The notes beneath the pieces are model-generated. The model worked only from the letters and a program-made list of their open reading frames with translations, was not told the DNA's origin and searched no databases. From Myxococcota bacterium (lineage in GTDB: Bacteria > Myxococcota_A > UBA9160 > UBA4427), in the NCBI GenBank assembly GCA_965250285.1, contig OZ252299.1:1344001-1408000 (forward strand): 64,000 bases of DNA, given 5' to 3'. Position 1 is the stretch's first letter; every line of letters begins with the position of its first letter. Positions 60,375-63,300 of this stretch are shown here, piece by piece. Position numbers and translations under genes: made by a program.

Positions 60375-63300
60375 TTGGTGCGCAGTCAAGTTGCTCGTGG
60401 CGTGTCGGTGCTAGTGGGTGTTGTGCTGCTTCTCGTGCCGGTCTCGCAAGCCGCAAGCGAGTCGTTGGCCGCGTCAGAGATGGATGCGATCGATGAGATT
60501 CGTTCGATTCTCAAAGACTCGCCTCCCGCGGATCTGACTCCCGCACTCGAGAATCAGATCCTTCAGACGCTTGAGGCGATTGAGGATGGCAGCTACCCGG
60601 CCGCAGGACAGCGGGCGAGATTGAGTGGCGCGGGTGTGTCTGCACTGTCCTTCGCGCCATTGTCGCAGCTCAGTCAACCGCAGGCGGCAGCGCAATCTGC
60701 ACCGTCCCGGACGTATACCTACGATGAGCTAGGTCGCCTGGATACTGTCACGTCGGCAGACGGCAAGCGTGTCAAGTACGCATACGATGATGCCGGCAAC
60801 AGGCGTATGGTTTTGGTTCCAGAGCCAAAGGGGTGGATGCTCCTGCTGGCTGGGGTCGCGACGCTGATCTCCATTCATCGCGGCCGCAAGAGCACTGCGA
60901 GGCGGGGTGTAGTCACGAAGCGCCCAGAGTGGCGTCGGTGGCTTCTCAGTGTTGCTCTGGTTGGTGCGACGATGCCTGGATCGGTCAATGCCAGTGATGG
61001 TCCCAGTATCGGGTCGATTCTCGGAACCATCTCACAAAACGGTGGCTCATCAGCCTCTGCTGCTACCGCGCCGGCCGAGCCGCAGTACGTGCTTCCTAGC
61101 TTGTATCCGGATTGCTCCGGAGGTCAGTGCTCTCCTGGACGGGTTGGGGGCAAGCTTGAGGCGGAGCTAGAGGCGGTGCGATCGGCCCTGGGCGGCGATC
61201 CAGCGGCAGTCTATCAGTGGGTCTATGAAAACATCGAGTATGAATGGACCTGGGGCTCGAACAAGGGCGCCGAGGGGACGCTACTCGACCGTTCAGGGAA
61301 CGACTTCGACCAGGCGAATCTCGTTCTAGCCCTCCTGGAGGGGTACGGGCACACTGCGGTCATTGAGTATGGGACTATCCGATATGACGCGGCTGCCATT
61401 ACAAGCTGGCTTGGAATCCCTGATGACGCTGTGTTGCTCAGACGAATCTTTGGAACCTTCGGTGGGCGCGATCCGGGCAGCAACACCGTTGTCGCCAATG
61501 GCGACGATACGATTCAGTATGCCGACCTTGAGCGCGTCTGGGTCCGGGTCGATGTTGGACCGTCCCACCAAGGCGGGTACTCCTTCGCGATGCTTGACCC
61601 TGCCTTCAAGTCACATGACGTGATTCCTCCAATCGATCTTGGAGCCGCGATGAACTACGACCGGTCGGTGTTCCGTACCAGTGCGTTTACTGGCGGTGGT
61701 GCGCAGATCGGATCCTCATCAGTAACGAGTCCGAACCGTGACGCAATCCATGGCAACTTGGCGCAGTATGCAACGAATCTGATCGAGCACGTTGGCGGTG
61801 CGTCGTCCGGTGTGGACCTGGTAGATGTGATCGGTGGCTCAGAGCTCGTCGCCGGTCCTGGCCCGATTCTCGATTCTGTACTGCCCGGCCTGCAACAAGT
61901 CTCGGCTGTCTGGACGGCGGTACCGGACGATCTCCGGACGACTCTAGAGTTGGCCTTCTCAGTCACGGGGGCGTCGTCGCCTCCGCCCGGGGCATGTGGC
62001 GGGTTCGTGTATACAGATGAGATCGCGGGTCGCAGGCTGACCCTGTCGCCCGATGTTGCGGTGGGGGGCGGTGCAGACGTTGTCCTTAGGTACGAGGGCG
62101 AGGAGATCGCGCGGTACTCAGATTGTCTGGCGACTGTCTCCGGTCAGGTTTCGAGTAGTTACCGATACGTGGTGGCGATCGATCATCCCTTCGCCGATGA
62201 GTTTCTCGCCGATGCGAGGCTAACCACAAACCTGCAAACGTCTGGCACCTACGCGCTGATAGCGCTCTTGGGGCGAATTGGCGAAGGACGGGTGGAGTAC
62301 CACTCTGCGCGTAGTCGAATCAACGCTGACAGATTCGATTCCCTCCTAGACGAACCTGTGATCGGCGAGGCCATGTCCGTTCTGGCATCCGGATTCGGGA
62401 TGCAGTCCAGCAGAGTTCTTGATCTCCTACGTCCCGCTAGCGAGGCTCACTGCCTGTTTCACCATGTCGTCGGTTTTGTGGGACAACGCGAGTATCCCTT
62501 CCTCGATCTTCCTGACGCAGTACACGCCTGCGTTAGCCCGTACTCCACGGACGGCGAGCTAGATACGGTTGTCGATACGATCGTGGCCGGGCACTTCGGC
62601 GGCCTGGAGGCAAGTGTTGTTCATCAGTACCAACAGCAGGATGCTGTCTCCACGCAGTATGTGTTCGATGAGTTGGCGGACTCGACATTCTACGAGGCTA
62701 CTAAGGACAACTTCAGTTCCATTAGACCGATGCTCAACGGATACAGCACGTTCTGGTTGAACGAATTTCAAGCATTCCTGAACAGCACTGTGAATGGGCG
62801 GTGGGTGCTTCCCGAGAAGGGAGACAACACGATCGGAACCTGGTTCGGGTTCGGCGTGTTCGGTATGAGTAAGTTCCGGTACCAAGCCTTGGTTTCGGGT
62901 GGACTCAATGGTGGCGTCGGGACCCAGCATGGAATCTACGAGATTCAGCCTCCGTACTTCGAGGTCCCTTCGAGCCATGCTCAGTCGCTAGACCCAATTG
63001 ACTTGGTCAAGGGTGACTTCTTGTTCGAGCACACCGATTTAACCGTAGGTGGTGAGTCCCCTCCGTTCGGATTGTCGCTTCGGCGGAGTTACAACTCTGG
63101 CGCCTTCCTTTCGAATGATGGCATGGGTGCAGGGTGGACTCATAGCCTGATTGGAAACGTGACGGTCGGAAGCAATGCGCTGTTGGCACTCAATGGCAGA
63201 TCTGTCGCGGAGATCGCTGCCGTGATCGCTGAGCTGTATGTGACGGTGGATCTCCTGCGTGATTCGGACGACCTCGCGAACGTCGTAATCGCGTCGCTAA

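Follow-up and report, generated by a model that had tools for sequence, protein, structure and literature searches.

We describe a gene from a 64,000-nt stretch of a Myxococcota genome (GenBank assembly GCA_965250285.1, contig OZ252299.1, positions 1,344,001 to 1,408,000; "the window", whose coordinates are used below unless another locus is named) that joins, in one reading frame, a pair of YD repeats and a PEP-CTERM-like sorting signal to a giant Rhs protein, by way of a second signal peptide. The gene, which opens at position 60375 of the forward strand, is an in-frame fusion of a two-gene cassette that is widespread in other phyla and consists of a YD-pair gene followed by a gene for a transglutaminase-type Rhs protein, and the fused form is retained across a deep clade of homologues. 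We favor a reading, at a probability of roughly 0.55, in which two helices of the product of this fused gene pass through the inner membrane as a hairpin, and cleavage of the chain yields two exported proteins.

The frame is free of stops from TTG 60375 to the end of the window at 64000 and continues, in the closed source genome (6,248,917 bases, 68.6% G+C, no N), to the equivalent of window position 66746, for a total of 2123 codons; residue numbers of the fused protein are counted from TTG 60375. A public gene call (2122 residues, 100% identical) starts at GTG 60378, and the Shine-Dalgarno-like sequence upstream of both codons is strong. G+C content by codon position is 0.675/0.494/0.630 in the N-terminal module (N-module) and 0.625/0.450/0.652 in the body, a coding-type pattern in both parts, with a flat profile in the upstream spacer. 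A scan of the frame found no ATG, GTG, or TTG between ATG 60837, which sits inside the first helix of the junction, and ATG 60972, which sits inside the second hydrophobic core; there is no start codon ahead of the second signal peptide, which is therefore made only within the long chain. Contigs assembled from three public runs of one study cover the junction with 0 differences and 0 gaps (one spans the whole stretch, the others 60557-61300 and 60557-61102); these runs may include the source sample, and so they exclude an assembly slip without amounting to independent biology. Among the runs listed as carrying the stretch, none is of RNA. The first-pass annotation, made from the letters of the window, had described a single uninterrupted frame with these parts in this order and had allowed for a lost stop at 60890-60920: the frame is indeed open through 64000 and on to its end, every segment lies where it was placed, and the contigs of the three runs are identical across the junction. 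We rejected the possibility that a slip of one base hides a stop (TAG 60910, frame +1), since the second part then has no start codon, the reads agree, and the homologues are fused. No paralogue of the fused gene was found in its own genome.

The YD pair is recognized over residues 116-143 by the Pfam RHS_repeat family (PF05593, E 3.9e-8) and by TIGR01643 (E 3.4e-8). An AlphaFold2 (AF2) model of residues 1-342, built from 8 sequences and poor overall (mean predicted local distance difference test score, pLDDT, 51.8), gives the pair four strands over residues 113-147 (pLDDT 72-76) and places helices at residues 2-26, 154-173, and 186-196; the spacer ahead of the pair has helices at residues 33-48 and 56-70 (pLDDT about 77-86) and is disordered over residues 77-109. 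Alignment of eight composite N-termini leaves Y114, Y116, D117, R121, Y137, D138, G141, N142, R143, and P149 invariant, and one homologue, P0081, has the start AASES...EI... in common with the fused protein. Among proteins of 99-317 residues we found no stand-alone relative of residues 1-181 at E up to 0.01. A search of residues 100-205 against shorter proteins returned nine Rhs fragments and no protein with signal peptide, YD repeats, and PEP-CTERM, an empty result that does not prove absence because short YD matches lie near the detection limit of a database of 5.8 billion proteins. In proteins of 1167-3716 residues, the N-terminal search returned, besides the protein itself, only YD-repeat matches covering 11-61% of the query.

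Directly behind the YD pair, the chain carries all three parts of a PEP-CTERM signal, namely a PEP motif (VPEP), a hydrophobic helix (KGWMLLLAGVATLISI), and a basic cluster (HRGRK). A short basic loop, predicted to be cytoplasmic, leads from there into the predicted second signal peptide, which contains the AF2 helix of residues 186-196 and is followed at once by SDGPSIG. The sole signal peptide of simple homologues occupies the same place, just before a conserved GPGW/LPGFR stretch. The topology proposed earlier, from outside through a helix to the inside and through a signal peptide back out, is compatible with the positive-inside loop and with the small-x-small site (VNA/S) after the second core. 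The sorting segment itself gives weak matches to NF038119 (E 3.5e-4), NF038129 (E 6e-4), and PEPxxWA models (E 0.0025-0.01). That it is more than a chance resemblance follows from its conservation in homologues, where VPEP is kept in 6 of 7 aligned sequences, and not from its motif score; an ordinary 358-residue protein of a relative ends in LLPEPEAWMALVAGAALLGAISRRRARS, resembling the internal segment.

The passenger behind the second signal peptide has the parts of an Rhs toxin. Its transglutaminase-like core is probably of the "inactive transglutaminase" type: judged by eye, its GNDFDQA stretch has Asp where the Pfam consensus presumably has the catalytic Cys. The shell contains arrays of RHS/YD repeats (PF05593, E 2e-10; TIGR01643, E 7e-9; the protein record lists PF25023 and PF20148), the ends of Rhs cores of known structure are matched by residues 1445-1949 (8h8a, E 1e-46; 7q97, E 7.5e-28; also 8qja), and a DPxGL-type motif, NPVRFADPLGL, stands at residues 1973-1983. 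No Pfam toxin family matches residues 1843-2123, and the 140-residue C-terminal tail has no Pfam family.

The two-gene form of this architecture was found in an alignment-based scan that yielded 80 loci, with one genome per species, from Alphaproteobacteria (including Bosea and Bradyrhizobium isolates), Melainabacteria/Obscuribacterales, Acidobacteriota, Phycisphaerales, Gammaproteobacteria, and others. At none of the 80 does a YD pair lie in the stop-free frame of the body. A separate open reading frame (ORF) ending in a YD pair lies upstream on the same strand at 40 loci under a strict rule (ORF end less than 1500 nt before the transglutaminase block, two YD motifs 15-30 residues apart within the last 90 residues) and at 53 under a looser one. 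The partner differs between lineages: in Alphaproteobacteria it has a signal peptide, YTYDALGR...YTYDANGNR, and a Trp/Cys-rich tail (WGCFNW..W); in Melainabacteria it has about 48-100 codons, ends in ...CGGGGC, and mostly lacks a leader; and in Acidobacteriota it is a large protein with the YD pair at its end. Small upstream genes of this kind are exemplified by positions 3956-4237 of the Bosea sp. OK403 locus (L034) and 3965-4144 of another locus of the scan (L073). In Melainabacteria the signal peptide is mostly lacking from both the small YD protein and the Rhs protein, which points to another route of export.

A hidden Markov model (HMM) built from the 40 separate pairs scores the N-module of the fused protein at 39.5 bits, against at most 10.2 bits for the 15 other matches in its own shell, and in 8 of the 11 fused proteins examined no other segment scores higher than the N-module. 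No shell repeat of the protein studied here approaches the score of its N-module, and in P0066, P0068, P0071, P0081, and P0221 (about residues 1474-1576) one shell YD pair scores near the respective N-module (22-28 bits). Hydrophobic leaders are present on both partners in 20 of 32 small-type pairs, on neither in 9, and on one partner in 3, an agreement that we read at the level of lineages and not as a statistic, as the 32 pairs come from few of them. Two ordinary genes, with a stop and a separate start, had been considered beforehand as a possible outcome of a comparison with homologues; this is what the 40 loci of other phyla have, and what the nearest relatives, all of them fused, do not. 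The two-gene loci reveal the origin of the fusion.

Fused relatives were sought with phmmer (residues 205-880 against 1.84 billion representatives), which gave 3129 matches at E up to 1e-3. Among the 149 best representatives, 13 have the composite layout of first signal peptide, YD pair, sorting-type helix, basic cluster, and second signal (ten by a hydrophobicity rule, three by eye), and 93 have a single N-terminal hydrophobic segment. Six of the composites nearest to the query, at 34-39% identity to it (P0066, P0068, P0069, P0078, P0081, and P0135) run from YxYDxxGNR through VPEP, helix, and basic residues to a second core with a small-x-small end and LPG(F/V/I)R; P0078 is labelled as a metagenome-assembled genome of Myxococcota, and P0218, of the P0068 cluster, occurs on 14 contigs. 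Five more distant ones (P0092, P0185, P0195, P0101, and P0214) have thrombospondin-type Asp-rich repeats and the sorting motifs VPALD.., LPSLG.., and VPSAP.., and weak matches to NF033207 over the sorting helix and the second helix occur among them (P0185, E 7e-4, 19.6 bits; P0101, E 0.0054), all below the cut-off of 45. In a FastTree phylogeny of the body region (142 rows, after exclusion of 8 that cover fewer than 450 aligned query positions), the fused protein falls in a supported clade (95) of at most 37% identity in which 8 of 8 rows are composite, and the composite label requires at least 5 changes over the tree, of which supported branches force 4, against a mean of 12.6 after shuffling (0 of 500 shuffles as low).

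All seven clade-mates keep the fused architecture, for which the first-pass annotation had suggested a search among homologues, and a genome of the same order (G199) holds a second such Rhs gene. This minus-strand open frame of 1612 residues (L121, G199:C252) reads first signal peptide, YVYDAAGRL..YEYDAAGNL, VPEPSAALAAGAALLALTACVRRRR, with VPEP, helix, and RRRR, and AAASALCGALALAGGGPAAA/HD before a DUF6531-like Rhs start; it has no transglutaminase domain and belongs to a second Rhs subfamily. Apart from it, a sample of 400 genomes of the phylum yielded simple transglutaminase proteins only.

The junction between a PEP-CTERM signal and a signal peptide recurs in this genome and in its order. 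A motif scan of all 54,944 frames that run for 60 codons or more without a stop found 60 matches to PEP, helix, and basic cluster within 8 residues of the stop and 17 farther away, and in six further genes an internal PEP-CTERM is followed by another 263-4489 codons. In five of the six, the Arg cluster is directly followed by another hydrophobic stretch that ends in a small-x-small site; the sixth (960376-962082) has a 40-codon spacer and an ATG between two paralogous modules. Their passengers include a 4715-residue FG-GAP/DUF4215 giant, a DUF4465 protein with a C-terminal PEP-CTERM of its own, a beta-helix/NosD protein, and a TSP3 protein. Two of the six have two PEP-CTERM stretches according to Pfam, which picks up an internal one (19.9 bits) in a third, and internal signals in other genes of the genome reach strong PEP-CTERM scores of 42.7, 23.9, and 21.4 bits. 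An N-terminal module common to three of the six turns up in 11 of a further 80 genomes from the order, either alone (open frames of 224-310 residues ending at the basic cluster) or fused (frames of 612-1627 residues), with junctions that are alike.

From topology and conservation, we consider it likely that signal peptidase and exosortase cut the fused chain into two products. The first signal peptide would start export of the YD module, the PEP-CTERM helix would halt transfer and leave its basic tail and the loop in the cytoplasm, and the second signal peptide would re-initiate export for the Rhs part, so that the two helices form a hairpin in the inner membrane. Signal peptidase I would then cut after VNA206 and free the Rhs protein, a site we propose because the sole signal peptide of simple homologues occupies this position; exosortase would cut at VPEP, leaving the YD module free or attached, and a small two-helix remnant would stay in the membrane. 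The machinery that the proposal of exosortase processing calls for is present, with six PF09721 matches over the cut-off in the genome, including a clear XrtT (421.7 bits), a near-threshold XrtA-like protein, and a small XrtH/ArtB-like protein (79.7 bits, below the XrtH cut-off of 86). The polyprotein reading of the first-pass annotation is supported in part, as regards architecture, conservation, and machinery; the cuts, the 1:1 ratio of the products, and the tethering by strand complementation that it puts forward are predictions.

Several observations weigh against this reading. The internal segment is absent from the PF07589 and TIGR02595 listings at E up to 1, the latter being the model named in the first-pass annotation for recognizing it. 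On an HMM of the genome's own PEP-CTERM signals, which was built from the 60 tails of the motif scan and finds 73 C-terminal signals, the segment scores 12.5 bits against a median of 37.6 (range 6.3-49.1), and its HRGRK cluster is weaker than the RRRR usual in the genome. The claim of an internal PEP-CTERM signal accordingly stands as regards motif, helix, basic cluster, and conservation in homologues, and falls short in score and in the strength of the cluster. With 1951 residues C-terminal of it, the segment also lacks the extreme C-terminal position, and in sequence it is best described as PEP-CTERM-type but divergent, failing two defining features, position and score. In the accessible part of Haft et al. 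2006 (PMC1569441), the distance from the end of the PEP-CTERM domain to the C-terminus is given as ten residues or fewer for 87% of cases, and domains far from the C-terminus are described as more divergent and possibly non-functional; that exosortase accepts a signal trailed by 1950 residues may be doubted. Further, none of the separate YD-pair proteins of other phyla has a membrane anchor, which makes anchoring no general property of the cassette; our signal-peptide and helix calls come from Kyte-Doolittle windows and reading; no orthologue was found in the 40 nearest genomes, five of them having weak partial matches; and the fused relatives are metagenomic proteins.

The low PEP-CTERM score also fits a protein that stays whole, its two helices holding it in the inner membrane with the YD module and the Rhs part in the periplasm and covalently joined. 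Such an uncut anchor would have the topology proposed above, and a transmembrane helix does replace the signal peptide before some inactive-transglutaminase Rhs toxins according to the accessible part of Zhang et al. 2012 (PMC3482391). We consider it unlikely, as a small-x-small site follows the second core here and, by reading, in most fused homologues and junctions, the second signal peptide matches the cleavable-looking N-terminal signal of simple homologues, VPEP persists in 6 of 7 aligned homologues, and a toxin held in the inner membrane would be kept from reaching its target cell. Signal peptidase might instead free the Rhs protein while the PEP-CTERM goes unread as a relic, with the YD module left as a membrane stub or degraded and the fusion serving as neutral co-expression. 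The weakness of the internal signal, the remark on atypically placed signals in the accessible part of Haft et al. 2006 (PMC1569441), and the absence of any need for an anchor in separate YD-pair proteins elsewhere speak for processing at this one site; we nevertheless think it improbable, given that PEP motif, helix, and basic cluster persist over a clade of at most 37% identity and that the same junction occurs elsewhere in the genome with strong PEP-CTERM scores (42.7, 23.9, and 21.4 bits). An artefact or decaying gene, with a lost stop, a sequencing slip, or translation only from ATG 60837 or later, is largely refuted and very improbable in spite of an AAGGGG ahead of ATG 60837 and a setting in a low-G+C island, where decay is common: the contigs of three runs are identical, a strong Shine-Dalgarno sequence and a signal peptide mark the start at 60375, the N-module has its homologue in the partner gene that other phyla have and stays in frame in all seven clade-mates, and a start at 60837 would yield a protein beginning inside a membrane helix.

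If the chain is cut in two as we favor, the products would likely act together, as suggested by conserved neighbors, several fusions, and matched export signals, with the YD pair docking or anchoring the Rhs protein as its partner. The conserved pairing makes the partnership itself likely; it may work through strands added to the shell or through occupancy of the dead transglutaminase cleft. We put forward only tentatively, and with considerable doubt, the wider proposal that, across bacterial phyla, transglutaminase-type Rhs toxins have a docking partner dedicated to them and exported separately, namely the pair of YD hairpins of roughly 35 residues that forms the conserved core of the upstream protein. 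In this myxobacterial lineage the pair would be made in the same chain as the toxin, released by signal peptidase, and fixed to the envelope by exosortase, holding the loaded Rhs cocoon at the surface through strands added to its shell or a filled cleft.

Several known systems bear on these readings. Rhs toxins with an inactive transglutaminase domain are described in the accessible part of Zhang et al. 2012 (PMC3482391) as Sec-dependent, with the domain directly after a signal peptide or transmembrane helix, and peptide binding in the dead cleft is proposed there for peptides in general. The fused protein resembles these toxins in its order of signal peptide, transglutaminase-like domain, RHS repeats, Rhs core, and variable C-terminal tail, and differs from them in that a first signal peptide, a YD pair, and a PEP-CTERM precede that signal peptide in the same chain; the accessible part of the same paper makes no mention of a conserved upstream YD-pair gene. 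With substrates of the PEP-CTERM/exosortase system it shares an N-terminal signal peptide, PEP motif, helix, and basic cluster, in a genome with some 60-73 canonical PEP-CTERM proteins; unlike theirs, its signal stands 1951 residues from the C-terminus and scores below curated thresholds. An NCBIfam model named "midcut-by-XrtH protein" (NF033207), whose role we take from its name, presumably describes a mid-protein exosortase signal, and its existence means that such a signal has already been conceived in a curated library; unlike members of that family, the junction has no match to the model (window 60750-61100 at E up to 0.01; the proteins P0001 and P0002 at E up to 1). Like TcB-TcC and the Rhs cocoons of T6SS (type VI secretion system; solved structures include 4o9x, 7q97, and 8uy4), the protein has a YD-repeat shell, a C-terminal core, and an end of DPxGL type. 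The shell of Tc toxins is put together from two YD-repeat polypeptides, so there is precedent for a shell that takes in a separate YD piece. Unlike those systems, the present one has no PAAR, VgrG, or TcA context, carries Sec signal peptides, and has a separate piece of only two repeats. In a literature search to which subscription journals were mostly closed, no paper turned up that describes a PEP-CTERM/Rhs fusion, a PEP-CTERM polyprotein, a YD-pair partner gene, or XrtH/"midcut". The main novelty is the conserved YD-pair partner cassette together with its fusion through a hairpin of sorting signal and signal peptide.

Rhs toxins exported by Sec and not by T6SS are common, and how they are held, presented, and delivered is unexplained; the YD-pair protein is a concrete candidate partner. 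To our knowledge, the cleavage chemistry and the acceptor of exosortase remain undefined, and the fusion offers a natural test case, as correct processing would give two easily distinguished products from one chain. The recurrence of the junction in the order points to a class of secretory precursors that is overlooked by gene callers and by domain models of C-terminal signals. Should the YD pair prove to be a docking partner, it would define a contact-dependent toxin display system without T6SS or CdiB, and the fused chain would be a natural two-product substrate with a direct readout of exosortase cleavage.

Table 1. Segments of the fused gene in window coordinates, and related genes with an internal PEP-CTERM signal or the shared N-terminal module
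Feature	Position	Strand	Basis or genome
Shine-Dalgarno-like GGAAGGAGG	60361..60369	+	Sequence reading; 5 nt before TTG 60375, 8 nt before GTG 60378
Predicted signal peptide 1 (SP1, residues 1-26, ...LLLVPVSQA/AS)	60375..60452	+	Two Arg, 14-residue hydrophobic core, SQA; AF2 helix residues 2-26
Helical/disordered spacer (residues 27-112)	60453..60710	+	AF2
YD-repeat pair (residues 113-147, TYTYDELGRL...KYAYDDAGNRRMVLV)	60711..60815	+	PF05593, TIGR01643, AF2
Internal PEP-CTERM-like sorting signal (residues 148-172: VPEP, helix KGWMLLLAGVATLISI, basic HRGRK)	60816..60890	+	Weak HMM matches; AF2 helix residues 154-173
Basic loop, predicted cytoplasmic (residues 173-181, STARRGVVT)	60891..60917	+	Sequence reading; positive-inside rule
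Predicted second signal peptide (SP2, residues 182-206, KRPEWRRWLLSVALVGATMPGSVNA/SD)	60918..60992	+	Basic n-region, 12-residue hydrophobic core, VNA at -3 to -1
Rhs toxin passenger (residues 207-2123)	60993..64000, on to window-equivalent 66746	+	Domain searches, genome frame
Transglutaminase-like core (residues 277-336)	61203..61382	+	PF01841, E 7.2e-4, 20.3 bits, below cut-off 23
DUF6531, start of Rhs shell (residues 873-930)	62991..63164	+	PF20148, E 1.2e-9
Internal PEP-CTERM genes (G000:C1; among L016-L021)	960376-962082, 2850730-2852523, 2966888-2970121, 4460853-4462736, 4479517-4482480	+	Motif scan
Internal PEP-CTERM gene (G000:C1; among L016-L021)	456539-470737	-	Motif scan
Shared N-terminal module, conserved GDE(I/V)CG stretch and PEP-CTERM	L133-L143		G239, G023, G024, G436, G021, G017, G253, G020, G224, G014, G209

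The gene lies in a region of at least 36 kb in which G+C drops from about 0.70 to 0.55-0.64 (genome 0.686); this region starts near window position 36,000 and continues past the gene (about 36000-64000 of the window and 1-18000 of locus L001) and is probably an acquired island. Low G+C is usual for acquired Rhs loci. Beyond the window end, a 105-residue ORF (L001:12746-13063, forward strand), whose first base is also the final one of the Rhs stop codon, encodes a zinc-ribbon-like CxxC...CxxC and hydrophobic segments and is a candidate for the immunity protein. Farther downstream lie the genes of two small membrane proteins that are paralogues (L001:13212-13577 and 17199-17516, both on the forward strand), perhaps as spare immunity genes.

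Directly upstream of the Rhs gene, positions 58691-59650 (forward strand) encode an FGE-sulfatase-like protein (PF03781, E 5.7e-19) with an ordinary PEP-CTERM of 21 bits, and a 210-residue protein with an ordinary PEP-CTERM of 25.3 bits lies at 47495-48130 (reverse strand). Positions 46565-47167 (forward strand) encode 200 residues that combine a bacterial SH3 domain with a superinfection-immunity domain (PF14373, E 2e-15).

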